From the NCBI RefSeq assembly GCF_964355755.1, contig NC_092674.1, positions 2,418,001 through 2,482,000 on the forward strand: DNA of 64,000 nucleotides, read 5' to 3'. Made by a program: the position numbers and the translations under genes. How positions within the stretch are numbered: the first letter of the stretch is position 1; each line of letters begins with the position of its first letter. Origin of the DNA: Antedon mediterranea (lineage: Eukaryota > Animalia > Echinodermata). Positions 5,568-59,972 of this stretch are shown piece after piece. Under the pieces are notes generated by a model. That model worked only from the letters and a program-made list of their open reading frames with translations. It did no database searches and was not told the DNA's origin.

Positions 5568-5568
5568 A

Positions 5569-5704
5569 AGCGCTGTCTACACCGTCGAACTAGTTGAAAA
5601 AACAAGTGTGATGTGTCCATATATGGTAGTGATGTGACATCATCATGTCTCTATATGGGCACATCACATTTGTCACATAAAGTTTGATAGTGTAGACAGA
5701 GCTT
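5569..5704. mobile_element. MITE family A copy
   Basis: GCTGTCTACAC...GTTTGATAGTGTAGACAGAGCT termini. Confidence 0.75.
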
Positions 5705-6379
5705 TAGGCGTTAGGACGATTACACATAATTCAAAGTACTACCGCAGTACGATAGCTACTACCGCAGTATATTCGTGACAAATTCTTTGAATTGAATGCT
5801 TGAATTGTCATCAGCAGAGAGCAAACCCCATACTCTATGCTACTATAGGGTGTTGCACAATGATCAGCTGACCATCGACTGATGGGCCCATGATCAGTTT
5901 TGTTTACGTGCAGGATATGATGAGGAAGATGAAACCCGTTAATAGGTGGTTCGACAAGAAAATAATACTGTGGAACCGGTTACATAATATTTTAAAAAGC
6001 CATCGATAATATATTATTCCAGGCTTGTGCAAGGAATGAGTAAATAGTCGTTTAAAATTATCATCAGACCACCACATGACATGTAGGCCTATACCATTCC
6101 ATGTGACCGTGTATCATCATTTTATGTAATTTATTGGGGGGGGGGGGGGCAAGTTAACCTTTGTGATTTTTTACTTTTTACTGTTGTTGACATGACGTAA
6201 ATTTCAAACCAGCAGCGAACTGCGTCGTTATTTTGTTTTATTTATTTCAATCTCCATAGAAAAAAAAATTAGAATTTGCAACATGATGATATATTAATCA
6301 ATCATTTTACGTAGTATAGATCATTACCGGTATTTTATTCGCCGATCTTTGCGACATTACTCTAGACAAAAGGATTGTT

Positions 6380-18029: not shown

Positions 18030-20632
18030 CATCTCATCTTGAGATGCTGGTGTAAATGTTGTGAGATGCTGATGAACAGCTGTCACAGGCTCATTAAATG
18101 ACATGTCATCAATCTTGAAGTCGTCTCTGATGATCTTGATCTTGTCTGTGAAAAACTGACAGAACCTGTTCACAAGATCTAAGTCAGAAAGACTATCTGG
18201 GAGAGGTGATACCTGGCGATGATGAAGGAGTTGGTTAACAATTTTAAAAAGTCCTTTCTGATCTGCTGCATGTTCTTCACACAAGCCAATGTAGTAGTTG
18301 GCCTTTGCCTTTCTTACCATGGAATTTACATTCCTCTTCTGTGCAATGTAAGCTTGACGATCTATTTCCAGATGAGAGATTCTCCATTTCTTTTCAAGCT
18401 TACGCTTTGTTCTTTTCTCAGCATAGATGTCACTGTTATACCAACTAGTGTTTGGTCGGACCTTTACTGTTCTCTTTTTCGGTGGTGCGTGTTTGTCAAG
18501 AAGTTCACTCAAAGTGGTGACATATAGTCGTACTTTACTTGATAAATCAAGATTTGAGAGCGAAGTTCCGAGATCAGACTGTGTGATATCTTTACATAAT
18601 GTCTCAAAATTTATAGCATTCCAATGACGAGTTTCGATGGATTTAGTGATTACGGGTGGCTTCTTGATAAGGAGATTACATGTGATTGCATAGTGATCTG
18701 ATATACCATCAATGACATTAAGGTTTGAGAAAACAGGAGGATCAGATGAACGAGTGATCAGCAAGTCTAATGTATGACCATGTCGGTGTGTAGGTGTAGA
18801 CACATGCTGTTGAAGACTGCTTGCTACAAGTAGATTCCGAAAATGAATTGCATCTGCATCATTTGGCATATCCACATGGATGTTAAAGTCTCCAACGAAT
18901 AGTATGGGAGCCGGCTTCAATACATAGTGATCAACCAAAGTTGAGAATTCTTCAGTGAAAACATTTAGACTGCAACCAGTTGATTTGCTTTGAGGACGAT
19001 ATACTGCTACGAGGAAAACTGAGGATGCATTGCTGACTATTTCCACATTTAGCAGTTCAAATGATTTTGGTAATAATCCCGTGTCATAACATTTAACCGC
19101 TATGCTTTCCTTGTAAAGAAGTGCAACTCCACCACCTCTTTTAGTACCAGCACGGGGAGCATGTTTGAGAGAGTATCCGTTGGGTGTAATATTTCCTATA
19201 ACTGATGTGTCTTCTGGTTTAAGCCACGTTTCCGAAAGGGCAACAACATCCAGATTATGTTCGATAACGAAATCCACAAATTCTGTTGTTTTGTTCCGAA
19301 CGGATCTTGTATTAATACTGCAAAATTTAATATTGTTTTTAGATAAGAGAGAGTTTGATGATAAGTCCGGAAATGATAGATTGTTTTTAGTGTGTTTGTC
19401 ACGCCCAGCTCTTGTACCACGCCTGGTTTTTCTTTTTGGCCTCCTTGGTAAAAGGCAAGGAAAGACCAAACAGGCGCTAAACACCTATGTTGGTTGGTCA
19501 ATCCAGAACAGAGCACAGAAATAAACAAACAAAAAATTTACATTCTACAATTAAAGCATCTATAAGAAAGAAAATTATTAGCAATCACCTTTTGTGCATT
19601 GAAACTTTTGGAACACTTAAAAATATTTCTCTAGATCAAGATAATTTGCATTAGTTCTAATTTTAATTCCAAAAATGTGCATAATGAAATTGAAAATAAC
19701 TGAGCAGAACAAGGAAATGCAAAAGATTTCAATATGAAATGATTATGATCCATTCTATTGAAAAGAATTTATCAAACGATTATGCGTGCGGCATAATAAT
19801 CGCACGCTACTATTGACACATTTTAAAATTTTTATTTGAACAATATTTAATAAGGGCGATCCATCCAGCATCAGCTGATCGTTAGGGACCCTCAAACAAT
19901 ACAAACGCTAAATACAAAATAAACGATAAAAATACAAAACATCTGTTTGTTTTATAGAAATGGGAATCCCCAAAACTTACATCAGCTTTAATATCGAAAC
20001 CACAATATCGACGATACTCGGAACTAATCCAATAGTTCATCTTAATATCATTTAATAACCGGCAGTGAACAGTAGTATCATATTTAATAAACAATAAAAC
20101 TAAACAACAACAAAAGAAATGTAAATAAAGAAAATGGTAATTATAAATATCAAACAATTTAGAGAATACATTTATACTTTCAACATATTAATATGTCCAT
20201 GCTTTCAATATATCATAAACAATCAACGTAATTTAAAGTGCCGCGGTGTAATAACAACCGTAGGATCAGCACTTTGCTATGCTTTCCTAATTAGTACCGT
20301 AATAGCGACATAATGACATAATGACTTAAGTATTAATCGCACTGAACTTAATTTGGGTCACTGGCTAAATTGGCGTTAAAAAAAGTCCAACCCAAAAGCT
20401 GGCTACAATTCCATAACTGATTGCCAAGTAGATTAAACTAACTTAAAAGAAAGTAAAAAGACCACAAAATACGGACAAAAATGATACAGTATGACTTGAA
20501 AACAGTATTAATTACACTGGCCCACTTGAGGCACATCCGGCCCACGACAGGAATAAATGGCACAAAATAGTAGAAGACGCTATGTCTAACGACGATGATG
20601 CATGCTAATAATATAAAACTCCAATACTGCTG

Positions 20633-21861: not shown

Positions 21862-22036
21862 AGCTTTGTCTACACAGCTATGAAACTAGTTTGTGTGATG
21901 TACCAAAATATGGTAGTGATATGCCCAAATATGGTAGTGATATGCTTAAATATGGTAGTGATATGACATCATCATGTCCATATATGGGCACATCACATTT
22001 TTTGTCACATAAAGTTTAGATAATGTAGACAGGGCT
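21862..22036. mobile_element. MITE family A copy
   Basis: Family TIRs plus three internal AAATATGGTAGTGATATG units. Confidence 0.75.
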
Positions 22037-23814: not shown

Positions 23815-23979
23815 GCTCTATATATATGCCTAATTATGGTAGTGATATGTCCAAATATGGTAGTGATATGACATCATCATGTCCAAATATGGTAGTGACT
23901 GTGATATGACATCATCATGTCCATATATGGGCACATCACATTTTTTTGTCACATAAAATTTGATAGTGTAGACAAGGCA
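23815..23979. mobile_element. MITE family A copy (left end partly deleted)
   Basis: Internal ATATGGTAGTGATATG repeats and right TIR TTTGATAGTGTAGAC. Confidence 0.65.
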
Positions 23980-32388: not shown

Positions 32389-33600
32389 CTTTATTTTAAC
32401 ACGGAAAAGCTTGTGTCACCATAAAGGTGTTCTTCTACAAGGCCGTGATCAACTAACAGTAGTACATTACACATTTAAAAATAACAAATTTTTAAAAATA
32501 ACAAATTTTAAAAATAACAAATTTTAAAAATAACAAATTAGAGAACAAAAATATATGAACAGAAACCTTAATTACATTTGTGATAAGAGTACAAAATAAA
32601 TAATAAATCACACCAATAATTTTTTGAAAGTATTCAAATTTGTGGCATTTTGCATTGGTTTTTTTAGAGTATTCCATAAACTAGCACCATGATATGAAAA
32701 ACTTTTTTTTTTATATTCTGTTTTGGGTTTATTCAATTTTAATACATCCTTTGATCTTGTATTGTATGTGTCTAGTTTGGGTGTAAATAGTTCGTTTAGA
32801 TATGGTGGTGCTTGATTATGGAATATTTTATATAACATTTTGGCTTCATTATTATGTAGTTGAGTATTAAGATTTATCCAGTTTAAGTTTTGCAGGGCTT
32901 GTGTACTTGAGTCGTATTTCCTTGTTTTTGTAATAATTTTGGCTGCTCTGTTTTGTAGCATTTGTAGTTTATTAGTATTTTTTTTATTTGATCTGCCCCA
33001 CACAATATTACAATAGTAAAACTGTGGAGAGATAATACTATTATACATTAAGCAAGATACATGTTTTGGGACGAGATTTGAAGATTTTTTTAAGTAGTAC
33101 AAGCCTGGCAATACTTTACTTTTAACATTATCTATTTGTTTATCCCACAGTAAATATTCATCAATAACAACACCTAGATGTTTACAGCTTTTTACTCTTT
33201 GTAGCCGAACATTGTCTATGTTTAAATTTAGATCAATGTTTGCTAATTTTGCAAGCCTTTGTTGTGTTCCTATAAACATACACTGAGTTTTATTTACATT
33301 TAGACTAAGCTTGTTACTTGCTAGCCATGATTTGATTTTTTTTAAATCTTCATTAATTTTTGCAAGTACTTCATTTATATCAGAAGATGCAAAGTAAAGA
33401 GCTGTATCATCTGCATACATACTAATCTGTACACTATTTACATGCTTTGGTAGATCATTTACATAAAGTATAAATAAGAGTGGTCCCAAAATTGATCCTT
33501 GGGGGATTCCACAATTACTATAGCATTTATCTGATCGGACACCATTTACTTGTGTTAAGTGCGTACGATCACAAAGATAGTCTTTAAACCAATTTAATAC
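32357..33600 (-). mobile_element. 5'-truncated LINE (CR1-group, L2/Crack/Daphne-like), RT C-terminal half
   Basis: GIPQGSILGPLLF, MYADDT, KHLGV and FSYHGASLWN motifs; (ATT)n tail at about 32357-32385; 16-bp unit x4 in the 3' UTR (about 32474-32539). Confidence 0.88.
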
Positions 33601-36600
33601 AGTTTAATATACAGTTTAAAGAATTTAACATTGAAATTTTGGAAAATAACAACATATTGAGGCTTGTAATATTTATTTATTTTATTCAATCGAAACCAAC
33701 AGCAATAATTACTGCCACTAATAGGTTTGATACTAACAAAGCCAGGACTGTTTAAAGCACCTTCTCTCGTCCAGTACCCACCTTGACTAGCACAGAGATT
33801 ATCTCTATGGTGCTAGCATGGCCAAATTAATAATCATCATGCCGTGGATGTACTGTAGTGAACTAATAGTAATGAACAGTTTTAGCTTTGAACTAGATGT
33901 CGGTCTTGTTAAATTCTACGCAAGCACTAACGAGGGAAAGTGCTTCTCAACAGATAACCAAGAACACAATATGAGGGCCTGCTTCTTCTGTAAAGGCTTA
34001 CCGGGGTTAAATTCCACATGAATTGCGTATTTTGGCTTGTTTGTATAGTTTTTAAAGTACAATACTGATGGAATGTATTTCAATCTTTTGTATTAAATGT
34101 CAAAATGTAATTCTATAACATTTGTGTCCTGTTTATTGTGAAAGGTATAAATGTTTCAATGGCTACAATGTTAATTTATGCCTCATTTGAATTCGAAGAA
34201 CGAATACTGCAGATTTGATTTAATAACTATATTGTCAATGATTTTAAGAAACAAAAGAAAATAAAATGCTGAAGTCATTGTATCCGTGAATGTATAAGAC
34301 AAAGGACAAAAGCTTTGGTGGTCATATTTGAAGGATTTAGGATGTAGTTTTTACATCCTAAATAATGTTGGTTTTTGCTTAGCAACAAGGAGTTATCATA
34401 CCTTTAACCTTATACATTAATGTTTTTTGTTTTTTTTCATATGCCTTTCTGTATGTTTAAATTTTATGTCATAGTTTTGCTGTGAATTTGTCTACTTTTG
34501 AACTCTTTTTGTACATTTTTTATACCTGAAAAGTAAATTAAAATCAGCAGTGGCTGCATTAATAGCTAAGAGTGCTCACTGGCAACCCCAAGGCAGTTTA
34601 CGGGGCCTGAGAAAAAAAAAACGCCCAAAAACTGGCACCAAAATATGTCGAAAAGAGCTCTGTGCTCTCAGTAATTAAATTTGACAATACACAATAAATC
34701 AATTAATTATTACCATAATGACAACAAAATTGAGTCAAAAGTTAAGGCTAAAAAAATAAAGACAATGATTTCCTTTTTAGTTGTTCCAAGGTTTTCTAAA
34801 CTAAAAGGAATGATGTTTTGGTTTTGATAAAATGCTAAAACACAATGGACTGCTGGACATTCTTGGGCCTTTGCTCACAATGTCCACTTTAGAGTTCAAT
34901 AACCTTATGGCTTCCTGGACATCCAGTTTCAAAGACTTGACCATTACCTTATATGCATCCTTTATTCTTAAATAAATGACTTTTGCTAAAAATAGTTTCC
35001 CAGGGATGTAAAAACAATGAATTGCTTCGTTTGGTAATATTTGATTTTGAATACTATTTCAGATTATTTAAAGGTAAATTTTAGGGATTTTCCCTTTGCC
35101 AGTTAGGGTTTCCCCTTTTAATTTAGGCCAAACACATACCTTTGATTTTTGAAAGTTTTATTATCGACTTCCTCAACGGACGCAAAAAACAAAAAAATTT
35201 TTTAAATAATCAGATATGATGTAATTTTTTATTTAATTAAAGGGACTATTATTCTACTGCAGTAACAGACTTTTTATGTAATTTATATCTAGTAAGCTTT
35301 TCTGAAATTGAGAGTGACTGACTCATAAACTTTGTAAACAAAATATAACCAACTGTTACTGCAGTAAAAAATGTTACTGCGGTAAATACAATTAGATTAA
35401 TTTTGTTATCCCTTAATCAGACATTTATAGCATAGAAAATATTAGTTCTTGTTCAGTTCTAATCAATTAATTAGACAACATAAATAAAAACTTTATATAT
35501 TATTTTCAAAATTTTTTGAGTATCGACGCCCCTGGATGTTCTGTGCAGAAGGCTGTTTAAGTTACAATTAATTTTGTCGATACATTATTATTAACACACT
35601 CTAATCTTATGATCATAAATTATCAATAGAGGATGTAATATTTTTATGGAAGCGTGCCAGCTGGCTTACGGCCACATGATTTTGACTTTACAAACTGTCG
35701 TCGTATCGTAGGTGTTATTGTCATCGAATGAACATGATCTTATAACGGCAGTAAAATGTTGACTGTATCAATTATATTTTATTTTATCATGCTATATTTA
35801 CGATATATTGCTGGGTCGACTTATGGTGAATTCTTCCATGAACATTGAAGACAATTTTTGAATATCAAAAACCAAAATTGCCTAAATACTACCAGCGATA
35901 AATTTGTACATAATTATATAAAATACAAACCGGACGCCAAAAGACCTGAAACAATTTCAACACAAAATTTGTCTTAAGTTTCCAAGATCCATTTCTAAAA
36001 ACGCGTTATGAAAACCGGAGTTGTGATTTTTAATGGTTTTGAGTGGTATCATATTGACTTAAAATTTAAACTTTGAAAGTAAAGAGGATTTTGGTTTTTT
36101 TATAAAAAGTTCTCAAAGTACTTTACGAATCAGCAGAGATCAGTGTAGTGGTCAGTTATGAAACAAAGCACAGTTGAAGACGTTTGTTCTCCCAAAAACA
36201 TGAATAATAAAATCATACATAGAATAGATTATTTTGTAGTTTTAATATAGTTATTCACTTCTTTTGTTCAATTCAATTTTTAGTGAAAGTAAGTGACATT
36301 AAAATGGCGTAATCAACATCAATTTTTTTAAGAATTATTTTTTTCAGTTAATTTTTTCAATTGTGTATATCTTTAAAACAGTGCTACTGTACGTAAAAGC
36401 ATGGAGGGATTCCTTCATGGTCAGAGTGTAACCCTATTGTATGTGCTGTACAGTGGGTAGGTGGTTCACCCCAAATTCCAGGAATGAATTTGACATTTTT
36501 AGAAAAGTTGCAGCAGTGTTCTATTTTAAAACCAAAGATGATTTACATTTGCGCTAGTTTGACAACATTTATAGAGTAAATATTTAAACAGTCAGAATGT

Positions 36601-36713
36601 ACAACTTTTTTAGCCATGTCATAAAAACAAACTTGTACCCTTACAAAGTTCAGAGAACTTCTAGTTGTTAACCTTACTGTACATAGATATTTTTATGTAA
36701 ATAAACTTTTTAT

Positions 36714-37298
36714 TAGTAAAAATGTATGTATGTACAGTAAAAATGTATGTATGTACAGTAAAAATGTATGTTGTACAGTAAAAATGTATATTGTACAGTA
36801 AAAAATGTATGTTGTACAGTAAAAATGTATGTATGTACAGTAAAAATGTATGTATGTACAGTAAAAATGTATGTTGTACAGTAAAAATGTATATTGTACA
36901 GTAAAAAATGTATGTTGTAAAGTAAAAATGTATGTATGTACAGTAAAAATGTATGTTGTACAGTAAAAATGTATGTTGTACAGTAAAAATGTATGTATGT
37001 ACAGTAAAAATGTATGTTGTACAGTAAAAATGTATGTATGTACAGTAAAAATGTATGTTGTACAGTAAAAATGTATGTTGTACAGTAAAAATGTATGTAT
37101 GTACAGTAAAAATGTATGTTGTACAGTAAAAATGTATGTTGTACAGTAAAAATGTATGTTGTACAGTAAAAATGTATGTTGTACAGTAAAAATGTATGTT
37201 GTACAGTAAAAATGTATGTTGTACAGTAAAAATGTATGTTGTACAGTAAAAATGTATGTTGTACAGTAAAAATGTATGTTGTACAGTAAAAATGTATG
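36714..37298. repeat. Minisatellite, 20-21 bp unit GTACAGTAAAAATGTATGT(T/AT)
   Basis: About 28 tandem units; source of the repetitive ORFs 36693-37346 and 36713-37306. Confidence 0.97.
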
Positions 37299-37377
37299 TA
37301 AATCAAAGAGCTGCATAGGCAGGATATAGAAAAAAATCAAGATCAAATAAGTTAAAACTGCCTCAATATAGATTTAT

Positions 37378-45062: not shown

Positions 45063-45226
45063 TAAGCTCTGTTTACATTATAAAAATTTATGTGATAAAA
45101 AAAATGTGATGTGCCCATATATGGACATGATGATGTCATATCACTACCATATTTGGGCATATCACTACTATATTTGGGCACATCACACTTATTTTGTCAA
45201 ACTATTAAGAAAGTGTAGACAGAGCT
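45063..45226. mobile_element. MITE family A copy (FIS1 intron 3)
   Basis: AAGCTCTGTTTACA...GTGTAGACAGAGCTT. Confidence 0.7.
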
Positions 45227-45933: not shown

Positions 45934-46080
45934 AAGCTTTTTCTACACTAAAAGTGTGATGTGCCCAAATATGGTGGTGATATGCCCACATATGGTAGTG
46001 ATATGACATCATTATGTCCATTATATGGGCACACATCACATTTTTCTGTCACATAAAGTTTGATAGTGTAGACAGGGCTT
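45934..46080. mobile_element. MITE family A copy (probably in FIS1 3' UTR)
   Basis: AAGCTTTTCTACAC...TTTGATAGTGTAGACAGGGCTT. Confidence 0.7.
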
Positions 46081-46868
46081 AATAAAAACTTGGGAGTTAT
46101 TTTTGTATAAGTGTCATTTTGTCCTATGAATATTCATGAGATATATATGTTCCTTTTATCATTGTCATGTATTTGTCACTCATATAGTTTTCACTAATTT
46201 CCTTGTAAGAGGAATGTGGTATAGTGATTACTAGAAACTAGAGTGATCAAGCCATTTATGGCATTTAGTTTTTTCATGAGGTATGGCTAAATGCGATAGA
46301 GTAAACAAACCGTATAAGGAACAAAGTCCATTTTATATATTATATCATATTTGTGGAATTATTATTTCCACCAATTTGCTTACTATCTTTTGTTTAAGTG
46401 ATTGTATATAAATAATCATGTATTACTAATTAGAGAAACATTTAATATTCAGAAATAAAAAGTTATATTTGATTTATTGTATAAGTTGTGGAAATGTAAT
46501 TTTATTTAAACATGCTTTAATGTCAAGGTCATCATATTGAATACAATTGAATATGATAAACAACATTTGTTTTTTTTTATTATGTCTTGCTTTAAAACAA
46601 ATACATTCAGTTTGATAGATAAATACAGTGTTCCCCTAAAGTTTGACAAAAAAATATGATGTGCCCATATATGGAAATAATGATGTCATATCAATATTAT
46701 ATTTAGACATAGGCACATCATACTTTTTTGCCAAACTTGTTTGAATATAGTGTAGATGCAAAGCTTAAGAACAATAATATAGGTGGCGCTATAACAAAAT
46801 ATATTGTCATCAGAGTTTGATGGGTGTGAAATAAGTTGATTCATATTAGGTAATAATACAGTAATCAA

Positions 46869-48260
46869 TTTACATATTTCTCGTAAATTAAATGACCATA
46901 TACAAATTGAGAATGTTTTAAAAAAAGGTCAAAGATTAATAGCGTACGTTAAATCAATTATCAGTAGCTTTGATAACTTTAACAGAGTATATTATGGGGA
47001 TACTCTGTGGAGATCGATAGTTCTCCCATCTATCAACTATGGTTGTTCAGTATGGTGCTCTTTAAGTAGAATAGATATAGATAAACTAGAGCGTCTCCAG
47101 CTCCAAATGGCACGTTATATCTTAAAAGCACCTCGAAATACACCTTGTGCCGCCTTATATGGAGAGCTTGGTTGGTCTCCAATTAACGAGATTCATAACG
47201 CTCTTCGTATTAAATACTTCCATAGAATTATAAAGATGGAAAACTATCGATGGCCAAAAATTATGTTTATTGGAATGCTACAACTTAATTGTGAATTTAA
47301 AGACTTAAGGTATAAGTTTCTATCTTGTATAAACGATATTCTCTTGAAGTGTAATTGTGAATCCAAAAATATTTTCACCACTCTCTCAAATTATAAAGAA
47401 GTCTACTTTCCAATTTCTGAAATCTTAAGAAAACTTAACTATATAATGATAGATGAATGGAGAATTGAATTACAAAATAAATCAAGTCTCCACATCTATG
47501 AAACATTAAAATCAAAACCTGGACTTGAAAATTACTTAATTGATAAAACTAATTTTGAAGGTGCTGCATTAAAATTTAAAGCTCGTTCAAATACTCTACC
47601 TTTGAATGATAGAACTGCAAATTGGAATATTGATAATAATAAAAAATGTAAATTGTGCGGTACAAATTTGGACGAAGACATCCATCATTTCATCCTTAAT
47701 TGTCCAGCTTTAAATAATATACGTAATCAGGAATTATTTAATTTATATGTGGATATGTATAGAAATGGCAGCAAAGATATGTTTGATACTTTTTATACTT
47801 CAATCTCCTGAAAATGACAAACTTAAATATATTTTGGGATACTCAGATAATTTAATTGATGAAGAGTGTGAAAATATTTTGGATAGTTTTTGTAAAAGAT
47901 ACCTAAAACAAGCATGGCAATACATTGCTACATTAAGTAAATTGAAAAAAAGTGGGGGTGGGGGGGGGGGGGGGGGGGAGGAGTTGGGGGTTTTTCGTAA
48001 TAAGCTGTGTTTATCAGTTGATTTTATTTTATTTTATACACTTTTACTATATCTTGTTTTGTATTCATTGTGTAAAGTAATGATCTACTGTATGTATCGA
48101 TGTAAATTGGGGGGGGGGGGGGGGTAGGATAGGGGTTGATAGTTGCTTTTGCCTTTTTTTACTTTTCTGTTAATTCTGTTATATTTTATATTGTGAAGGA
48201 TGCACCTTTGTGCTAAGTGTGCCACCGATCTAAAGGTGTAGTTCCAAATAAATAAATAAA
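46869..48260 (+). mobile_element. 5'-truncated RTE-X-like LINE (post-RT region and CCHC zinc knuckle)
   Basis: Frame open from about 46870 (IVLPSINYGCSVW...ALYGELGW...CKLC..EDIHHFILNCP), frameshift near 47800, G-rich 3' UTR, (AATA)n tail, possible AATCAA TSD. Confidence 0.8.
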
Positions 48261-48731: not shown

Positions 48732-49316
48732 TGTAATATAAAGATATACTTTTATATTTAAGAAATTGACCTTTGTATCGGAATTTAAATAGGTTCACAA
48801 ACTTGACCCAGAAAGTCCGAAGGAGAGTTTGTCCAGATGTTTTAATGACCATTTAGTTTATAATAGAATCCCTAAAGAAAACACTTAGCTTAATTTTGTG
48901 ACTTTCCCATCGTTAAAACCAGGAGTGATCGACACTATTTAAGTACAGATTTGACAGTGTCATCCATCACAGAAATACCTTATGACACCGTTAATCACTC
49001 CCACTTAAACACCCCTGGATCAACTTAGGACCAATCGTTACCCTCACAGATGATGTAATGACATTATGCAAATGAACTGAGCCAATATACCCCCAGGTTT
49101 CAGAAGGGCCCAGACACACCTTACAACCACTTCTCCAGAAGCAGACCTACACACACCACACCTCACCGACAGCATCATTGATTGTCCGTTCCTTATCTAT
49201 ACTTATAGTTGTATATTGTACTGAAGTATTATACTGAATAAATAATATATGTGTTACGACAGTCAAGCGAGTCAGAGTCCTTCATTAGTACCTCAACAAC
49301 CCAACATTATATTACA
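48732..49316 (+). repeat. 5' LTR
   Basis: 585 bp; 10-bp terminal inverted repeat TGTAATATAA/TTATATTACA; CCAAT boxes; octamer ATGCAAAT at 49066-49073; AATAAA at 49237. Confidence 0.97.
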
Positions 49317-49440
49317 TAGTGGAAGACCCGAATTTCATAAGGAACGGAGTGAGAAAACAAGAAATAAACACTTAACAAGACACGAAGACGAAGACAAAAA
49401 TAACCATATTTGTTTGAAAGGAGAGAAATTTACTTTGACT

Positions 49441-49645
49441 CAAAAGACAAGCTGAAATTATATTTGAATGAGATCGAGACAAGCAGAAATTTGATCAAAT
49501 TATTACCATTGGATGAAGACAAAAAAGATAATCGAGGAAGACACAAAAGACAAGCTGAAATTATATTTGAATGAAATCGAGACAAGCAGAAATTTTATGA
49601 AATTATAACCATTGGATAAAGACAAAGAAGATAATCGAGGAAGAC
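49441..49645 (+). repeat. Two ~103-bp direct repeats in the retrotransposon 5' leader
   Basis: CAAAAGACAAGCTGAAATTATATTTGAATGA...GATAATCGAGGAAGAC at 49441 and 49544; a second ~52-bp duplication at about 49750-49855. Confidence 0.85.
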
Positions 49646-50031
49646 CCAAGAAGAATCAAAACAGAAGCAAGCGGACAAGAACTGTTTCGTTTAGAGACTT
49701 TCAACTTCACGCCGTTTTTTTTTCGATCGTTTTTTTTAACATTTACCTTTTTTGAACATTGATGAACACCTATCGCATTTTTTTTAATTCGTTGTTTGAA
49801 AATTTGAACATTGATGAGCACCTTTAACATTTCTTTAATTCGTTGTTTGAACATTTAGACATTTTTGAACACTTTTTGCATTCCTTTAATTCATTTTTAA
49901 TTGGATCCGAAGCATTTGGGGTAAGTCAAAACCATTTTGATTTTGATTTGTAACCTTGATTGAAAAAGTGAGAGTTTACATATATATACACTAAATTGTT
50001 TTGATATTTTGATTAATTAATATTATAAAGT

Positions 50032-50997
50032 ATGGTCGACGTTGTTGATAACGAAGTAATTTTAAATGAGCCCGCCAATCCTCACCCCGTGCCCCACCTA
50101 AGACAAACCGATTTCCTTCCCAAAAGATATGACGGTTCCATAACCGATCACGACCAATGTAGTGCACATTACTTATCGTTTACCGACTACCTTGAGGCCC
50201 ACACGTTAGAAAACCCTGTAAACAATGCCCAATTAATTAATGTAATAAGTATTTTTAAACGTAGCCTTCAGGGCCAAGCTAGACTCTGGATTGAGGGAAA
50301 GCAGTTCGATTCACTAGAATCCTTAAAAACCCAATTCATCAACAGGTTTAGTAAAAACAAATCAATCTATGCGCACATAAGAGAATACGATTCAATTACA
50401 TACACCACTGGCGACAACGCCGAAAAGCACTTAACCAAAATCAAACAAGCCGCAGACAGAATTGGATACGCTGACCAGCAGATAAAGAATAAATTTATTT
50501 CGACCCTTCCACCAAAATGTAGAGCAGCTGTAGCCATGTCCACCCCAATCGATGCCACTATTGAAAATATTGTAAATAGCACACAAAATTACCTTGACCT
50601 TTCCGTAGATGATGCCACACGGGAAGTTTCATTCAATATCAATAAGGAAACAGATAGGCCTAATAGTCTCGAATCGCTCCAACATGAGATAAATTCTCTC
50701 AAGTTAGACATGGCCACAACAAAACGATCCCTTAATGATGATACTCGACGCTCACGTTCCCCCACCCGAAATTATATCCCAAGACGAAACCGAAGCCCAA
50801 GCCCATACAAACCCCGATTCCAGACCCCACCGACCCCAAGATATAGACAACCTCCCCCAACCTGTTATTACTGCGGGAAACCAGGCCACATAGCAAGGCA
50901 CTGCCGACAACAAAACCGCTCTTACGGAAACTATCCCCCGCCATACCCATACCAACAGTCAAACAATTACTACCCTAGCCACCAGCAGGATTTTTAA
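50032..50997 (+). CDS. gag: Gag (capsid-like region, RS-rich segment, CCHC knuckle)
   Basis: 321 aa; LQGQARLWIE capsid-like helix; CYYCGKPGHIARHC knuckle. Confidence 0.93.
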   Translation: MVDVVDNEVILNEPANPHPVPHLRQTDFLPKRYDGSITDHDQCSAHYLSFTDYLEAHTLENPVNNAQLINVISIFKRSLQGQARLWIEGKQFDSLESLKTQFINRFSKNKSIYAHIREYDSITYTTGDNAEKHLTKIKQAADRIGYADQQIKNKFISTLPPKCRAAVAMSTPIDATIENIVNSTQNYLDLSVDDATREVSFNINKETDRPNSLESLQHEINSLKLDMATTKRSLNDDTRRSRSPTRNYIPRRNRSPSPYKPRFQTPPTPRYRQPPPTCYYCGKPGHIARHCRQQNRSYGNYPPPYPYQQSNNYYPSHQQDF

Positions 50998-51032
50998 AAA
51001 GGGGACTAGATGCCGCCTATAATCTGGCCCCC
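50988..51032 (+). promoter_or_regulatory. -1 programmed ribosomal frameshift signal
   Basis: Slippery G_GAT_TTT directly before the gag stop, 6-nt spacer, then stem GGGGACTAGAT...ATCTGGCCCCC; pol lies in the -1 frame and is open from this site. Confidence 0.8.
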
Positions 51033-53615
51033 CATACTAAATACGACAATTTTAAGGCAAAATACTTAGGAAATTCAGATAATATTGATTTGTTACTTAA
51101 CGACAGAAATTACGTTAAAGGAAATTTACCAGATGGTAGAAATGTTTTAACTTTATTTGACAGTGGTTCAACTAGAACTATAATCTCACAATCGTACGTT
51201 AATTCCTCACTTTATTTATCGCGTTTAAAGCCAGTTAAAGTGAACACAACCAAATTTCGATTAGGTAACGGTGACTTCTTATATGCCAACCACTTAGTGC
51301 AATTCGAATTAATTATCCAAGGACACAAATTTAAAATTTCAGCATTAATCGTTAAAAATTTGACAGGTATTGACCTGATACTTGGAACCGAAACATTGTC
51401 TGAACTCGACGGTACTTTAAATTTTAAGGAAAACACATTTCGCATTAGACCAAAGATTTTTAGCTTTCGTCCAGTACACAAGATTTTTCTTAAACCCGGT
51501 GATACTAAAACAGTTAAATTAAAAGGAAGGGTTCCCGCCTTTGTACGCAATTCCGATGTTGTTCTACATGCAACCACCCATATTTCAAAACTTTGTCCAT
51601 CAGATATGTTAGTAAAATTACACAGAGGAGAAACCAACATTGATATCACTAACAACACAAACAGAAACGTATCTCTAAATACACATCAACCTATCGCGAG
51701 CCTTCACTTAACCAACCTTGTAACAGTTACTAACGACCTACCAATAGATAGAATAAAGTTGACCAATGACAACGCAAACAAGTACCCACATTTAGAACGT
51801 ACAGACCCATTGCTATCTTTAACCGAGGAAGAAATAATTAGAAACCAAGTTGATTTAACAGACAGCGTTTTAACACATAGAGAAAAAGAAGATTTGTATA
51901 AAACCTTACAACAAAACCGAAACGCATTTTCACTATACGGTGAACTATCTAGCTGCCCAAACTTCAAAGCTGACATACACCTCTCTAACGATGAACCATT
52001 TTTTATTCGCCCATACTTCGCGACAGACAAAGACAAACATGTTATTGAGGCCGAATTGAACAAATTAGTCAAACTAGGAATCTTAGCAGTAGGACACCAA
52101 TCGTATACTTCCCCTGTCCTTCTTGTTTCAAAGAAAAATTCAAAAGATAAAAGAGTTGTCACAGACTTTCGCTATCTAAATTCCAGGATAAAACGTATTA
52201 ATCACCCATTCCCATTATTAGCCGAAACTCTGAAAACAATAGGTAACGCTAATGCACAGATTCTTAGCGTAATTGATTTGAAATCAGCGTTCCACTGTGT
52301 ACCATTAGCCGAACATGCCCAACAATATACAGGTATAGCTTCATATCATGGTGGAAAACATTATTATTATAAGAGATTAGCACAAGGATTAAACGTTTCA
52401 CCAGGTATATTTCAAGCAAAGATTGACGAAATTTTAAATGAAATCCCAAATTCTAGAGAATTCTGTATCGCCCATCATGATGATATTATTTTATTTAGCC
52501 AAGACAAATTTTCTCATAAGCAGCACCTCGTTTCCGTTTTACAAACCCTACAATTAAATGGTTTTAGAATTTGTCCAAAGAAATGTAAGTTATTCAAGAA
52601 TAAAGTGCAATATATGGGACACACCATCCTGATTAATTCTTCAGGACACGCATGTATCACACCATTAGGCGACAGGTGTGCAGCTATCCGAAATTTGCCA
52701 GTCCCACGAACCCATAAAGAAACTAAACGATTTATTGGTGCAGTAAATTATGTATCCCATTTTTTCCCTCAAATACAATCAATTTTACGTCCGTTACACA
52801 CACTCGCAAGCAAACGCCGAAAATTTTGTTGGTCTACTGAACACCAGAAAGCATTTGACGAAATTAAACAATTAATGGTTAAACCACCAACTCTTCAAAT
52901 GCCTAGAAAAGAAGGTAGATTTACGCTATATAGCGACACTTCAAGAACCGCAACAGGTTCATATTTAACACAAACAGTAAACGGTAAAGAACACATAATA
53001 GGTTATTATTCCAAAATCTTACCACAAGCCTGTCAACGATATAGCGTCACAGAACTAGAGTTATTTGGACTTTACATTAACGTTTCAGCATTTCGACACT
53101 TACTAAAGGGTTGCGAATTTGATGCATTCGTAGACCACTCAGCAATTGTACAAATTTGGAATTCAAAAGATCAGCCATGTACACCCCGTTTACAGAAACT
53201 AATATTACGATTGTCCGGATACATTTTCCAAATTGGTTATAAGAAAGGAACTGAATTAGTTTTAGCAGATTTTCTCTCCCGAGCCCCTCGTGATGACGAT
53301 TCCGAAATTGATCAAGTTGTACCCATTGCATTTAATATTACAGAGACTGAATCCTTTAACCCGATTACAAACACATCTACTAGCAGACCAGTAACAAGGT
53401 CATACGCCAAGAAAATGGGAATAAATATACCTGACCTACATAAACCCAAACCCAAACAAACGCCCGTCATTAATCAAAACCCAGTGACAACAAACACGCG
53501 ACCTACACCTCAACCTACCGCTACACCACAAATAATCACGAGACAACAAACAAACGCACATCGATCACCCGTTTATTTTTCCAAGATAAAGGTGGAGAAT
53601 TTGTATTGCAATTAG
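50988..53615 (+). CDS. pol: Pol part 1: aspartic protease, RT, RNase H
   Basis: LFDSGS protease; VTDFRYLN, IDLKSAF, LAQGL and HHDD RT motifs; YSDTS, ELELFG, FVDH and ADFLSR RNase H motifs. Confidence 0.93.
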   Translation, partial: GFLKRGLDAAYNLAPHTKYDNFKAKYLGNSDNIDLLLNDRNYVKGNLPDGRNVLTLFDSGSTRTIISQSYVNSSLYLSRLKPVKVNTTKFRLGNGDFLYANHLVQFELIIQGHKFKISALIVKNLTGIDLILGTETLSELDGTLNFKENTFRIRPKIFSFRPVHKIFLKPGDTKTVKLKGRVPAFVRNSDVVLHATTHISKLCPSDMLVKLHRGETNIDITNNTNRNVSLNTHQPIASLHLTNLVTVTNDLPIDRIKLTNDNANKYPHLERTDPLLSLTEEEIIRNQVDLTDSVLTHREKEDLYKTLQQNRNAFSLYGELSSCPNFKADIHLSNDEPFFIRPYFATDKDKHVIEAELNKLVKLGILAVGHQSYTSPVLLVSKKNSKDKRVVTDFRYLNSRIKRINHPFPLLAETLKTIGNANAQILSVIDLKSAFHCVPLAEHAQQYTGIASYHGGKHYYYKRLAQGLNVSPGIFQAKIDEILNEIPNSREFCIAHHDDIILFSQDKFSHKQHLVSVLQTLQLNGFRICPKKCKLFKNKVQYMGHTILINSSGHACITPLGDRCAAIRNLPVPRTHKETKRFIGAVNYVSHFFPQIQSILRPLHTLASKRRKFCWSTEHQKAFDEIKQLMVKPPTLQMPRKEGRFTLYSDTSRTATGSYLTQTVNGKEHIIGYYSKILPQACQRYSVTELELFGLYINVSAFRHLLKGCEFDAFVDHSAIVQIWNSKDQPCTPRLQKLILRLSGYIFQIGYKKGTELVLADFLSRAPRDDDSEIDQVVPIAFNITETESFNPITNTSTSRPVTRSYAKKMGINIPDLHKPKPKQTPVINQNPVTTNTRPTPQPTATPQIITRQQTNAHRSPVYFSKIKVENLYCN

Positions 53616-55279
53616 CTGTTCCTGAAAACTTAGCAGAGACTGTTATTTCTCAGTATCACGACAATTTGTTAAGTAGCCACCAAGGTACGATGCGTACTTA
53701 CCTTACTATTAGGAAATTATTTTACATGCCTCTTATGTTCGAGAAAGTCAACAATTATACCCAAGCGTGTCTTAGATGTCAACAATTTCGTCCCAAAACC
53801 GATAAATTACGTCCTTTACACGATCGAGTACCAACAACTTACCGTCCCTTTCATACACTCAGTCTAGATTTTAAGAGTATGCCAACTTCACCTTCAGGTT
53901 TTAAACATATTATGGTAGTATGTGATGAGATAACTAGATTTTTGATTTGTGTACCTTTGAAATCCATTGATGCCGAAACAATTTGTGAAGCACTAATTCA
54001 AAAGGTCATCAGTATTTTCGGACCCCCATCTCGTCTTATTTCAGATGCAGCAACCTCCCTTACAGGAAAATTATTAACACTATTATGTAACACCCTTAAT
54101 ATTGATAGGAAAATCATCAGCGTCCACAATCACGGTAGTTTACAAGTTGAACGTCATATCCGCACCGTATCGGACCTGTTAAAGGTCAACCTTAACCAAT
54201 TCGGAACAGATTGGGTTAGATTTGTATCAACAACATGTTATGCTTATAACTCGTTTTCATCCCCACATCTAGGAAACCACTCCCCTTACGAATTAGTTTT
54301 TGGCCGCCAACCTCCAAGTTTGACCTCATTAGCATTTAACCCTATTTCAGGATTGTCTCATTCCTATGAAGAATACTTTGAACACCTCAAGAAGAAATTT
54401 CAAAACATTTCACAGACAATGCTACAATTACAGCGAACACAACAAAACGTCCAAAACTCAAAGATTTCCCAACGCTTAGAAAAAAGTCCAATTTACTCAG
54501 TAGGACAACTCGTATATTTATACAAGCCAACATCATCATCACTAACAGCAAATTCAAAGAAAATCGCCGCAGAATGGGTCGGACCATTAGTAATTCATGA
54601 AGTACTAGACAGAACACACTACATCCTAGCGACGATTAAAGGAGAAATACTTCGCGACGTATTCAATTATAACAGACTGAAACCTTGTTTTATGAGAACA
54701 CCCAAAGAACGCAAAAATTTTACACATCTACAAAAACTTAAACAATTGTTGAATGAACCAACTGATGATAATAACGATAAAATCCAAAACACCATTAATG
54801 TAGTAAATGACGAAACCAATGTTGAATTTGTAGACGAACATGATAGGACACCCACCCAATTGCAATCAGATACCCTTACACATCCAACTAAGATAGAACC
54901 CCTTAACTTGCAACCTTACATTGACTGTGTAGAGAATAACATGGGATTAGCAGCTCCATTCCAAATGAAAGAAGAGCAAATAAAGGAACAAACTAATCTA
55001 ATTATGACAGCACCTAATGATTCAAATATGACATTAAACCGAGGTAGATTTAAAGCAGGACATTTCCAAGTTTTAGTTTCGTATTCTAAACCGACTTCAG
55101 TCAAACGCAACACTGATAAAACAAAACACGAATCTAATGATCGCAAATTTTGGTGGAATATTGACAGATATAACGATACAGATAAATTAATTAAAGAGAT
55201 CATTAATGATAAACAGATACCGATAAGTGGATCGCCAAAACGATTCATAAAACGTTTGTATAATGCAACAAATTACTGA
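53570..55279 (+). CDS. pol: Pol part 2: integrase (HHCC, DDE, GPY/F-like) with long C-terminal extension, in a different frame from part 1
   Basis: YHDNLLSSHQG...CLRC; LSLDF, ISDAA and VERH catalytic triad; WVGPL; frame is -1 relative to PR-RT-RH. Confidence 0.9.
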   Translation, partial: RLFFQDKGGEFVLQLAVPENLAETVISQYHDNLLSSHQGTMRTYLTIRKLFYMPLMFEKVNNYTQACLRCQQFRPKTDKLRPLHDRVPTTYRPFHTLSLDFKSMPTSPSGFKHIMVVCDEITRFLICVPLKSIDAETICEALIQKVISIFGPPSRLISDAATSLTGKLLTLLCNTLNIDRKIISVHNHGSLQVERHIRTVSDLLKVNLNQFGTDWVRFVSTTCYAYNSFSSPHLGNHSPYELVFGRQPPSLTSLAFNPISGLSHSYEEYFEHLKKKFQNISQTMLQLQRTQQNVQNSKISQRLEKSPIYSVGQLVYLYKPTSSSLTANSKKIAAEWVGPLVIHEVLDRTHYILATIKGEILRDVFNYNRLKPCFMRTPKERKNFTHLQKLKQLLNEPTDDNNDKIQNTINVVNDETNVEFVDEHDRTPTQLQSDTLTHPTKIEPLNLQPYIDCVENNMGLAAPFQMKEEQIKEQTNLIMTAPNDSNMTLNRGRFKAGHFQVLVSYSKPTSVKRNTDKTKHESNDRKFWWNIDRYNDTDKLIKEIINDKQIPISGSPKRFIKRLYNATNY

Positions 55280-55964
55280 TTTAAATTTTTTTTGCAAGAT
55301 TATTTTTAAATTACGACATTTGCTAAATGATAGCATAGTCTACGTATTTGATGAGATTTGTTTAGTAATGATGTGATTTCAGTTAAAAGAGAATTGAATT
55401 TATGTTTAAGTATTGATTTTGTAACGAGTTTTTTTTTGATGAAGATTAATTTTGAATTTTTGAATGATCGATATATTGAGATATTGAAAAGAACGACAAT
55501 CATTTTGTAACAAATATTTTGTTGAACCTTTGAGTCGTTAATCTCAAGCATTAATTAATTGATATACAATAACAGGAGATTTTCTTAGTACTTTTAATTG
55601 TAATTTTGTTGACATTGAGTACAAAAGTCGAATTTGTCGATTGATTGAAATCGTAATTACCTGTAAATATAAATGCTTAAATCGATAAAGTTGTGACGAT
55701 AATGATATATTGTGGATAAGTTTGTGTCAACGGGACACACACATTTGTTTCTTTTAAAGTTTTAAGTGATTAAGTTTGATATTTGATTTTAGGCTAATCA
55801 GCCACAGTTTCTTGAATTTTATGTTTCGATTTGATTGATTTATATTTGAAGGCCATTAGAACGCGATAAGTTGTCGCGCTATTTGATATATATTCATTGT
55901 ACATATTCTTTAAGTTCTTTAAATTTGACCAATTGACGTTTGATTAACGCTCGAGGGAGGAGTA

Positions 55965-56050
55965 GAGCCAATTACGAGCTATATATATAAACAACCGGAT
56001 GGGCAGACTATAAATAAGTCACACGAGCGTATCAAATATACAGTATTTAC
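55965..56050 (+). promoter_or_regulatory. Putative internal promoter for the extra ORF
   Basis: GCCAAT (about 55967), TATATATATAAA (about 55980), TATAAATA (56008) and an Inr-like ACAGT about 30 nt downstream (56040). Confidence 0.5.
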
Positions 56051-56215
56051 TGTCGAATTATAAGTTAATTTACTTTTGTGAGATTGTTATAATAGTTGAA
56101 CTTAAAATTTTATTGTTTGAGTTTTATATTGTTTATTTAGTTTAATATTGTTTATTTTAAATACATTTTAATTTTATTTATCGTAATTTTAGTCAATTCC
56201 AAATTTCCCCCTAAA

Positions 56216-57091
56216 ATGGAATCCGAAAAGCTTGACGTTACACAGTTATGCTTAAAACACAAAATTCAAATGACGCCCCTGTCCACAGAATGTGCCCTTA
56301 TAAAGAAGATAATCCTTTACCAAAGCGAACAAAACGTAACCCTCCATATTACCAAAATGATGCCATTTACTTTAGATTCCTTGAAAAGAGTTTTATTATT
56401 CCTTTGCGACATCCGTCCAGCAGACCAACTGACAAACCTCAAATTAAATACCCTTTTACACATTGGCAGTTATTTATGTTGTTTCGACAAAATGTCCTCC
56501 CCCATTATAGATTACATTTGGAAGCATAAGAGTGAACCAGCCCTACTTGACTTTTCCACAATCGACCTTTCCATTAATCTAGACGGCATCGCCACTTGTA
56601 TACCAAACACACATGAATTTCACAGACAACATATTTATTCTATGACCCTCCTGCTCTTAGCAATTACAAAAGACATCAAAGCCCCACAATGCACAGCATT
56701 TTTTTCAAGAGTCCGACAACAAACAGGCATCATACCCCAAGACGAATTAAAACCTAGCGAACACTCACCATTTGGATATGTTGTAACTAAATATAAGAAA
56801 AAACTATATTCGCACATTCGTAACATGCAGTACCTGGAAAATAAATACCAAGATACCCCCTGCCAAATTTGTCAATGTAACCCCGAAATTAAAAACTTTC
56901 ATACTGACTGTACAATCAACAAATGCTGCGGAACATTTTTTCACAAAAATTGCCAACAAATATCCCTCAACAAGAAATACCAATGCTTGAATTGCGGTAT
57001 GGTATATTTGAATGAGATCCCTTACACAACTACCTACATGTTGGACATACCGTGGAGTGCATTCCGTTATTATCGATTATTATATGATTGA
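56216..57091 (+). CDS. Retrotransposon extra ORF: BTB/SKP1-like N-terminus + C4HC3 (RING/PHD-type) zinc finger
   Basis: Intact 291-aa ORF with AAAATGG start context, inside the LTRs. C-terminal CQIC-x17-CC-x4-H-x2-C-x10-CLNC. The N-terminal helix pattern resembles BTB/SKP1 (by eye). Confidence 0.8.
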   Translation: MESEKLDVTQLCLKHKIQMTPLSTECALIKKIILYQSEQNVTLHITKMMPFTLDSLKRVLLFLCDIRPADQLTNLKLNTLLHIGSYLCCFDKMSSPIIDYIWKHKSEPALLDFSTIDLSINLDGIATCIPNTHEFHRQHIYSMTLLLLAITKDIKAPQCTAFFSRVRQQTGIIPQDELKPSEHSPFGYVVTKYKKKLYSHIRNMQYLENKYQDTPCQICQCNPEIKNFHTDCTINKCCGTFFHKNCQQISLNKKYQCLNCGMVYLNEIPYTTTYMLDIPWSAFRYYRLLYD

Positions 57092-57517
57092 TTTCAATTT
57101 ATCCTTTATAAATTTTTTTTTCTATTTCAAATAATTAACGGGAGTCGACTTCTTGACCGATGTTTTTTAGAGAAACCCAACCGTTGTGATGTTTATATTT
57201 CGGTAATCCGAGTGTAGCATGCCTCCAAAGCAACGGACCCACAATTATGTCGATCTTGAAGAACACTTTTGTTTTTTTTATATACATTTTTTGTTTTAAA
57301 TTTTATATAAATTCCGGAATTTTTATACCAAATTCAATTTTAATTTCATTTTTTAAAGAGAGAGAAGAGAGAGAGTGAAAGTGATAAGGTTACACTTCAG
57401 AGTCAATGGTTTTGGCTAACTCAATTTTTGCTTATATGTATAATAATGTTTTTTTCTTTTATATAACTTTAATTTTGCATGCCACTATTATAACCATTTT
57501 TATATGTTAAATAGATT

Positions 57518-57544
57518 AGAAAAAAAAAAAGGGAAACAGAGGGA
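57518..57544 (+). other. Polypurine tract
   Basis: AGAAAAAAAAAAAGGGAAACAGAGGGA abutting the 3' LTR. Confidence 0.9.
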
Positions 57545-58129
57545 TGTAATATAAAGATATACTTTTATATTTAAGAAATTGACCTTTGTATCGGAATTTA
57601 AATAGGTTCACAAACTTGACCCAGAAAGTCCGAAGGAGAGTTTGTCCAGATGTTTTAATGACCATTTAGTTTATAATAGAATCCCTAAAGAAAACACTTA
57701 GCTTAATTTTGTGACTTTCCCATCGTTAAAACCAGGAGTGATCGACACTATTTAAGTACAGATTTGACAGTGTCATCCATCACAGAAATACCTTATGACA
57801 CCGTTAATCACTCCCACTTAAACACCCCTGGATCAACTTAGGACCAATCGTTACCCTCACAGATGATGTAATGACATTATGCAAATGAACTGAGCCAATA
57901 TACCCCCAGGTTTCAGAAGGGCCCAGACACACCTTACAACCACTTCTCCAGAAGCAGACCTACACACACCACACCTCACCGACAGCATCATTGATTGTCC
58001 GTTCCTTATCTATACTTATAGTTGTATATTGTACTGAAGTATTATACTGAATAAATAATATATGTGTTACGACAGTCAAGCGAGTCAGAGTCCTTCATTA
58101 GTACCTCAACAACCCAACATTATATTACA
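57545..58129 (+). repeat. 3' LTR
   Basis: 585 bp; no differences from the 5' LTR found by visual comparison. Confidence 0.97.
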
Positions 58130-58730: not shown

Positions 58731-59972
58731 ATGGTACATCAAGTCAAATGCGTTTTTTTGTATTTGCTTTCAGTTTTGTTTACCACTACCATGGCGACTC
58801 AATCCACCTCAAGCTTTGAGAATCTCTCTGATTTAGCAAATTCCAGCAACGAATTCTCGTTGGATTTGTATAAAACGATTTTACCTACCGCCAAAGGTAA
58901 AAATATCTTCTTCTCGCCAGTAAGCATCACAACTGCGCTATCAATGACGTACATGGGTGCACGCGGAGAAACAGCCAATCAAATGCGAGACGTTTTGCAT
59001 TATAACGACATCGATGAGAACAAATTACACCAGTCTTTTTATGAATTGAATGGCCTGCTGTATGGAAGTGAGGAAGCTTATACCTTGAAGTCTGCAAACC
59101 GTTTGTTCACCCATCAAGGCTTCAGTATTCTTGAAGAATATCGCCAGCAAACAAAAGCTCATTATCTGTCCAAGTTGGAAACGCATAATTTCGTCGAAGA
59201 TGGGGCAGGGGCTGTAAACGCCATCAATTCATGGGTTGAAGGTGAAACCAATGGGAAAATTAAAGATTTGTTGAAGGAAATAGATCCATTAACAAGGTTA
59301 ATTCTAGTGAATGCTGTTTATTTCAAGGGGAATTGGTTAAATCAATTTGATATGGAAAATACACACAAAGGGGTTTTCCACGTTTCATCAAATGAGAAAG
59401 TTAACTGTGATTTAATGTTCCAAAAGCGGCACTTTAATATCACATATGATTCTGGTAATAAATGCTTGGTTCTCGATTTACCATATAAAGGCAATGATCT
59501 AAGCATGCTCATTGTGTTGCCTGATGATACCGATGGCTTAGCGCTTTTGGAAAGGAAATTATCGGCTTCTCTTCTGCAATCGTGGACGTCTACATTGCGC
59601 CACGACAAAGTTGAACTATATCTTCCAAAATTCAGTCTTACAGAGGAATTTCAACTAAATGATGTACTGATTAAGATGGGGATGGGTCATTTATTTGACG
59701 AAGTCAAGGCTGATTTGTCTGGTATCTCGACAGCAGATCAGTTACACGTGTCAGAAGTTTTGCATAAAGCGTTTGTTGACGTTAACGAGGAGGGTAGCGA
59801 AGCAGCAGCGGCCACATCTGTAAGATTGAGTACACGCTCTATTGAACGCAACACCCAGTTCAGGGCTGATCATCCATTCTTGTTTATCATACGTGATCGG
59901 CGTACCGAGATGGCGCTGTTTATGGGAAGAATGGCTAAACCTCAAAATACAAGCGACCATGATGAGCTGTAG
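58731..59972 (+). CDS. Inhibitory serpin with signal peptide and C-terminal HDEL (neuroserpin-like secretory-pathway serpin), intronless CDS
   Basis: NIFFSPVS, NAVYFKG, hinge EEGSEAAAAT, FRADHPFLF signature; P1-P1' = R-S; hydrophobic N-terminus; ends HDEL*. Confidence 0.95.
   Translation: MVHQVKCVFLYLLSVLFTTTMATQSTSSFENLSDLANSSNEFSLDLYKTILPTAKGKNIFFSPVSITTALSMTYMGARGETANQMRDVLHYNDIDENKLHQSFYELNGLLYGSEEAYTLKSANRLFTHQGFSILEEYRQQTKAHYLSKLETHNFVEDGAGAVNAINSWVEGETNGKIKDLLKEIDPLTRLILVNAVYFKGNWLNQFDMENTHKGVFHVSSNEKVNCDLMFQKRHFNITYDSGNKCLVLDLPYKGNDLSMLIVLPDDTDGLALLERKLSASLLQSWTSTLRHDKVELYLPKFSLTEEFQLNDVLIKMGMGHLFDEVKADLSGISTADQLHVSEVLHKAFVDVNEEGSEAAAATSVRLSTRSIERNTQFRADHPFLFIIRDRRTEMALFMGRMAKPQNTSDHDEL

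Follow-up and report, generated by a model that had tools for sequence, protein, structure and literature searches.

An extra gene in the env slot of a recent Gypsy insertion

The stretch of Antedon mediterranea DNA analysed here, 64,000 nucleotides (nt) of contig NC_092674.1 and hereafter called the window, contains at 48732-58129 a Ty3/Gypsy long terminal repeat (LTR) retrotransposon of ~9.4 kb that carries, downstream of its integrase, an additional open reading frame (ORF) designated ORF3. We tentatively propose, at a probability a little short of even, that ORF3 is an optional cassette gene in this recent insertion, likely maintained by selection and likely encoding a RING-type protein that works within the ubiquitin system of the host, either as ligase or as adaptor. 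The gene and its two candidate parts are as follows, with coordinates counted from the first letter of the window.

56216..57091, + strand: ORF3 accessory gene, 291 amino acids (aa), ATG to TGA
56216..56545, + strand: ORF3 residues 1-110, domain predicted to be helical, with motifs in a BTB/SKP1-like pattern (putative)
56861..56995, + strand: ORF3 residues 216-260, zinc finger of C4HC3 type, probably an atypical RING

ORF3 starts 936 nt past the integrase stop codon (55279) and lies upstream of the polypurine tract (PPT). When the 2.3-kb region from integrase to LTR was shuffled 1000 times, ATG-initiated frames reached at most 128 aa, compared with 291 aa for ORF3. With a frame so far beyond chance, ORF3 is a genuine extra gene, and a preliminary description of this DNA, made by reading the sequence alone, had located the 291-aa frame between integrase and PPT correctly. 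Its location in the env slot is the one point in favour of an env protein or a FAST-like fusogen. No hydrophobic segment was found in ORF3 (best 19-residue hydropathy window 1.11) and no R-x-[KR]-R furin motif, NxS/T occurs once, and the N-terminus is hydrophilic, although no dedicated signal-peptide predictor was run. sORF2/FAST-like proteins, in contrast, are membrane proteins of 63-107 aa (PMC11952523). The lack of both a hydrophobic segment and a furin motif argues that ORF3 is neither env nor FAST-like, as the preliminary description had held for env; the fusogen reading is already largely refuted and we consider it extremely improbable.

The C-terminal part of ORF3 is probably an atypical RING finger

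The candidate zinc ligands of ORF3 are C216, C219, C232, C237, C238, H243, C246, C257 and C260, exactly where they had been placed before, and a loose C4HC3 pattern arose in only 3 of 20000 shuffles of the protein. The preliminary description had left open whether this finger is a RING variant or a PHD finger. A search of the ESM Atlas with residues 205-270 gave best matches at 0.91, and all 10 of the 10 best family-bearing matches belong to the RING clan, listerin (0.87) and FANCL_C (0.86) among them; no PHD family appeared among the ESM Atlas matches listed or among the Pfam matches. A sequence search of the PDB returned a solved RING domain, 2ecm, as a weak match (E 0.27). The finger has the spacing C232-x4-C237-x5-H243 and a ligand 6-7 gap of 10 residues. 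A ligand 3-4 gap of four residues characterizes the FANCL/Slx1 subgroup of atypical C4HC3 RINGs (PMC4726241), and ORF3 agrees with this subgroup in both C4HC3 order and C232-x4-C237, while ten residues is the commonest ligand 6-7 spacing of RING-H2 fingers (PMC5240574). In addition, Ile218 precedes ligand 2 and Phe242 precedes ligand 5, in keeping with the Ile/Val and Phe/Tyr expected there in a RING. The fold of residues 216-260 is therefore probably that of an atypical C4HC3 RING, spaced like those of FANCL and Slx1, so that of the two earlier options the RING is favoured and the PHD disfavoured. We also considered the RING-v (RING-CH) class, with one residue between ligands 3 and 4 and seven between ligands 4 and 5 (PMC5240574), and rejected it, as the ORF3 spacings are 4 and 5, or 5 and 4.

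A PHD finger that reads histone H3 tails, steering or shielding insertions, would be consistent with the ORF3 spacings, which fall within the PHD range of 2-4 residues between ligands 3 and 4 and 4-5 between ligands 4 and 5 (PMC5240574), and with the Tyr located two positions ahead of ligand 7; PHD fingers are moreover known accessory domains in several transposable elements (TEs) (PMC8557442). However, the PHD sequence pattern failed on ORF3, whose gap between ligands 6 and 7 is only 10 residues. A PHD finger as a rule has twelve or more residues there. Together with the absence of PHD families noted above, and with the fact that the FANCL and Slx1 fingers were both first taken for PHD on the same spacing (PMC4726241, PMC5264512), this makes a histone reader quite improbable.

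Several observations speak against a RING-type ligase. None of the matches attains conventional significance. No ESM Atlas row has more than 148 of 256 features in common with the query, whereas the tool expects at least 170 for true family members, a threshold that was not measured for parts of proteins, and the Pfam match to zf-RING_2 is weak (E 0.4; 11.4 bits against a cut-off of 27.3). ORF3 has S250 at the position, four residues beyond ligand 6, where RINGs usually but not universally carry a Trp, and L258 in place of the similarly usual Pro that follows ligand 7, so that binding of a ubiquitin-conjugating enzyme (E2) may be weak or missing. The atypical RING of Slx1 was inactive as a SUMO ligase in vitro and functions in protein binding (PMC4726241). 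In the full-length AlphaFold model, the predicted local distance difference test (pLDDT) score is below 50 over residues 210-291, too low to speak for or against the fold. The main rival explanation is a non-catalytic binding protein, in which the RING-like finger and the helical domain link proteins or RNA of the element to a host partner for integration-site choice, particle assembly or transport. The missing Trp and Pro, the Slx1 precedent and the helical-repeat-like single-sequence models described below all fit this explanation, but FANCL, the other member of the spacing class, is an active ligase (PMC5264512, PMC4726241) and ORF3 retains Ile218 and Phe242; we regard a purely non-catalytic role as somewhat unlikely.

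The N-terminal part of ORF3 shows a BTB/SKP1-like motif order

The BTB/POZ-SKP1 pattern reported in the preliminary description was recovered in so far as three BTB-like motifs occur in order. Their score of 50 out of 86 was reached by 1 of 3000 whole-protein shuffles, by none of 3000 shuffles of residues 1-110 and by none of 32 natural windows (best 43), although this test overstates the case because the motifs were chosen post hoc, with the ORF3 sequence in view. Support from Pfam and from structural modelling was not obtained. Pfam returned no family for residues 1-110 at E 10, with filters that drop weak matches. The BTB/SKP1 fold consists of a three-strand sheet and five helices. The AlphaFold single-sequence model of residues 1-110 (pLDDT 63.7) contains six helices and no strand, with a helix spacing that fits the motif register; built without an alignment, it is too weak to decide the fold. 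Foldseek with this model, a check that the preliminary description had proposed, found no match at E 0.001 in the PDB or among viral structures. The best match in the VIA structure search was to helical repeats (Z 6.8, root mean square deviation 3.3, 84 aligned residues), and no BTB or SKP1 chain was among the best 50 VIA rows listed, which does not exclude the fold. Residues 134-211 were predicted by AlphaFold to be helical at low confidence. The full-length model (pLDDT 46.8) gave a best VIA match of Z 6.3 on generic helices and no Foldseek match at E 0.001. We consider a diverged BTB/SKP1 fold of residues 13-105 possible but somewhat doubtful.

ORF3 probably lies in a variable cassette

Comparison with other copies of the family delimits a segment around ORF3.

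55901..57131, + strand: variable ORF3 cassette, approximate limits; other copies diverge from the window sequence there, and depth drops between
55966..56015, + strand: CCAAT-like and TATA-like motifs just inside the cassette, a possible internal promoter (inferred)

High-depth contigs depart from the window sequence at 55901 and return to it at 57131. In 4 runs, the depth over ORF3 amounted to 0.17-0.26 of that in the median gag-pol bin and to 0.24-0.40 of that in the lowest one, from which the share of copies follows only roughly, as summed contig depth is a poor measure of copy number by the tool's own warning. On this rough measure, somewhere between one fifth and one third of the copies in the family probably carry ORF3, and the family-wide occurrence for which the preliminary description had asked does not seem to hold. 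At the cassette, the remaining copies possibly hold a version less than 80% alike, another gene, or nothing. Runs labelled as organisms A, B and C, and one unlabelled run, contain ORF3 sequence at ~86-99% identity. As to its expression, CCAAT-like and TATA-like motifs are common in AT-rich DNA (10 and 12 matches, respectively, in the whole element), and a splice-donor-like site is predicted in the element leader, at 49921.

ORF3 is likely under purifying selection and has no credible homolog in the collections searched

Usage at fourfold-degenerate sites in ORF3 matches that of gag (chi-square p 0.96) and differs from that of a host serpin ORF (p 0.003) and a host zinc-finger ORF (p 1e-05) in the window. 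Codon usage that is gag-like and unlike that of the host argues for long residence of ORF3 in the element, although fourfold-site usage differs somewhat between ORF3 and pol (p 0.009). Differences among ORF3 copies were then counted in the best 40 of 90 difference rows, those best supported, 39 of which lie inside ORF3. Codons 263-291 were set apart because contigs carry indels there. Over codons 1-262, 12 of the 24 listed differences are synonymous against 20-29% expected (binomial p 0.001-0.02), corresponding to a ratio of nonsynonymous to synonymous differences (pN/pS) of 0.25-0.40, and none of the 39 listed differences touches a codon for any of the 11 Cys and His residues in the finger. 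Gag and pol, by way of comparison, have 13 synonymous changes among 20 listed differences. This case for selection is tempered by several results: over all 291 codons the signal is weaker (15 of 39 listed differences synonymous, p 0.006-0.12); most of the 24 differences come from organism B, and the variants are non-independent; a few ORF3 contigs carry frameshifting indels and the C-terminal tail is variable. Judged from these sequences, ORF3 is likely under purifying selection, and the comparison of copies that the preliminary description had called for thus speaks against neutral decay.

Homologs of the ORF3 protein were absent at E 0.01 among 273 candidates and at E 1 among 7 shorter candidates; longer proteins were covered by a representative library alone (1.84 billion representatives). 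The single match in that library, P0002, was rejected: it is an unrelated protein of 2683 aa that contains membrane-like segments, and its score adds up the contributions of 6 Cys-rich repeats. No ORF3-related locus was found in the metagenome or viral contigs searched, none of 3 PDB sequence rows at E up to 10 is credible, NCBIfam returned no family, PHROGs gave matches at E 0.029 or weaker only, and the ESM Atlas yielded no usable match to the whole protein. By sequence comparison, ORF3 is thus without a credible homolog in any protein collection searched. The literature yielded no RING or BTB ORF3 in an LTR element, in a coverage mostly without subscription papers and Repbase Reports; to that extent, the earlier statement that this architecture is not known from described Gypsy elements holds.

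These data bear on a further explanation, that ORF3 is a recently captured fragment of a host or viral gene drifting neutrally in one sub-lineage. The minority of copies carrying ORF3 by depth, the variable tail and the frameshifted copies would fit such a history, and the ESM look-alikes are mostly small RING proteins of giant viruses, which according to the tool is no evidence of transfer. However, a match to a host gene fragment, which the preliminary description had named as the outcome to watch for, was not seen in any credible form among the 1.84 billion representatives, and the gag-like codon bias, the synonymous excess and the occurrence under three organism labels all run counter to recent capture, which we judge very unlikely.

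The element is young and its pol is broken

The remaining features of the element are listed below.

48732..49316, + strand: 5' LTR, 585 bp, TG...CA, 4-bp target duplication just before
50032..50997, + strand: gag, 321 aa, one CCHC knuckle
50979..53615, + strand: pol first frame (protease, reverse transcriptase (RT), RNase H)
53474..55279, + strand: pol second frame (integrase with a long C-terminal extension)
57518..57544, + strand: PPT, directly before the 3' LTR
57545..58129, + strand: 3' LTR, identical to the 5' LTR, target duplication just after

With TG...CA LTR ends, a target duplication, a PPT and the order protease-RT-RNase H-integrase, the element is a Ty3/Gypsy LTR retrotransposon; its gag matches zf-CCHC (E 1.7e-05) and, weakly, Ty3_capsid (E 0.13) in Pfam. 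The two LTRs agree at 585 of 585 positions, the target duplication is 4 bp, and contigs in 4 of 4 runs examined (X1, X4, X6 and X9) join the empty site across the element, indicating that the insertion is recent and not fixed. The runs were picked for matching this region and hence cover it by choice. No RNA run was listed among the matching ones; X4, only guessed to be RNA, was treated as DNA because it shows the empty site. The preliminary description was therefore right about the youth of the element but not about its wholeness. Pol of the window copy is split between two frames near 53569, where ~410 nt present in other copies (X9 record 27, X4 record 13, X6 record 21) are missing, so that this copy has a broken pol and lacks the uninterrupted pol of an autonomous copy. 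The 5' leader contains two tandem 103-bp repeats, 93% alike, at 49437-49642.

Of 255 candidates, 7 are related to the C-terminal part of the integrase at E 0.001 or better, and 2 of their 7 clusters include sea urchin members (Lytechinus pictus and Strongylocentrotus purpuratus). The C-terminal extension (54587-55279, +; ~200 aa) is 39-44% conserved in 5 relatives; its last 119 aa have no Pfam match. By eye its spacing resembles that of a chromodomain, and the extension could be a targeting domain. Alignment of the integrase against viral contigs and prokaryote genome contigs found no loci, and an integrase tree of 15 rows did not place the element. The RT active-site motif, usually YxDD, reads HHDD here (~52470-52485, +), as in the relative L001, and HYDD in the relative L002. 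The distant relative L001, with an integrase 54% identical to that of the window element, carries 446 nt past its pol stop a 197-codon frame (L001 positions 5217-5810, +) that matches GDSL lipase (E 1.3e-05, below the curated cut-off). A short tandem array precedes this GDSL/SGNH esterase-like ORF. The L001 contig stops short of any visible 3' LTR, and the L002 contig stops soon after pol.

Proposed role of ORF3 and related systems

Beyond the fold assignment of the finger, we infer the role of ORF3 as follows. ORF3 would have a promoter of its own or reach expression through a spliced subgenomic RNA, its finger would recruit an E2, and its helical part would bind a substrate or a cullin scaffold; residues 13-105, if folded as BTB/SKP1, would engage a cullin or self-associate. 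The protein would act to the benefit of the element and in trans for the family, including from copies with a broken pol such as the window copy. Binding of an E2 by the finger while helical residues 1-211 hold a substrate or scaffold is a tentative proposal, with close to an even chance of being right. A defence or silencing protein of the host as the target is suggested by analogy only and seems unlikely. Improbable and more speculative still is a one-chain BTB/SKP1-plus-RING protein on an exchangeable cassette with its own promoter, which would hijack or mimic a cullin-RING ligase to degrade the host's transposon-silencing factors; it would be the retrotransposon equivalent of viral antagonists such as ICP0 or those of the Vif type, with a minority of copies supplying the whole family in trans. 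In the main, animal LTR retrotransposons are believed to escape silencing by passive means. A ubiquitin ligase or adaptor encoded by such an element would, if true, represent active counter-defence and, once purified, would name its host target; ORF3, predicted to be small and soluble, is a directly testable protein.

Extra 3' ORFs in LTR elements are already known. LTR retrotransposons of bdelloids carry a variable non-env ORF3, including a GDSL esterase and a DEDDy exonuclease, as a family-specific ORF downstream of pol that is exchangeable and missing from some lineages (PMC5408684), and L001 resembles them in its esterase-like ORF downstream of pol. In contrast, the cargo in the window is a zinc-finger protein without detectable homolog, whose presence seems to vary within one family, and the bdelloid variation is reported to be mostly neutral (PMC5408684) whereas the listed ORF3 variants show a synonymous excess. 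The giant planarian Gypsy elements Burro/GYPSM1 share ubiquitination-linked domains (MATH/TRAF, BIR, ubiquitin/SUMO-like, and an AIR1 motif described as a RING zinc-finger), but these lie mostly in the giant ORF1 polyprotein of a 30-kb element, and no BTB is mentioned in the accessible portions of the source (PMC6431247); the window ORF3 is a stand-alone 291-aa protein at the 3' position of a 9.4-kb element. With FANCL and Slx1, ORF3 shares the C4HC3 order, the four residues between ligands 3 and 4, the C-terminal position and the PHD look by spacing (PMC4726241), but no sequence homology was detected, the ligand 6-7 span of ORF3 is shorter and its N-terminal part was unrelated in every search. 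The viral RING ligases HSV-1 ICP0, KSHV K3/K5 and rotavirus NSP1, which act against host defence (PMC5972323), and the anti-silencing factor VANC of DNA transposons (bioRxiv 2024.04.02.587720) are likenesses by functional analogy only, as parasite-encoded accessory proteins facing host defence; no homology to ORF3 was found, and VANC belongs to a different kind of element. What appears new in ORF3 is the type of cargo, the lack of homologs, the apparent selection and the apparent presence in part of the family only.

Other features of the window

A serpin ORF in a single frame (58731-59972, +; Pfam E 1.8e-129) begins ~600 bp past the 3' LTR, and the unfixed Gypsy insertion, which sits upstream of it, may lie in its upstream region. 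A 637-codon frame with C2H2 zinc-finger repeats (8869-10782, -) is by eye probably an exon of a host gene. Fragments resembling the endonuclease and RT of long interspersed nuclear elements were recognised by eye at 14518-19484 (-), 32608-33603 (-) and 46840-47811 (+), the last with a zf-RVT match. Units of 20-21 bp form a tandem array at 36694-37305. Dispersed repeats with internal 21-bp units occur in both orientations at 21916-22003, 23824-23951, 45098-45197, 45945-46033 and elsewhere, and resemble the ends of non-autonomous DNA transposons.
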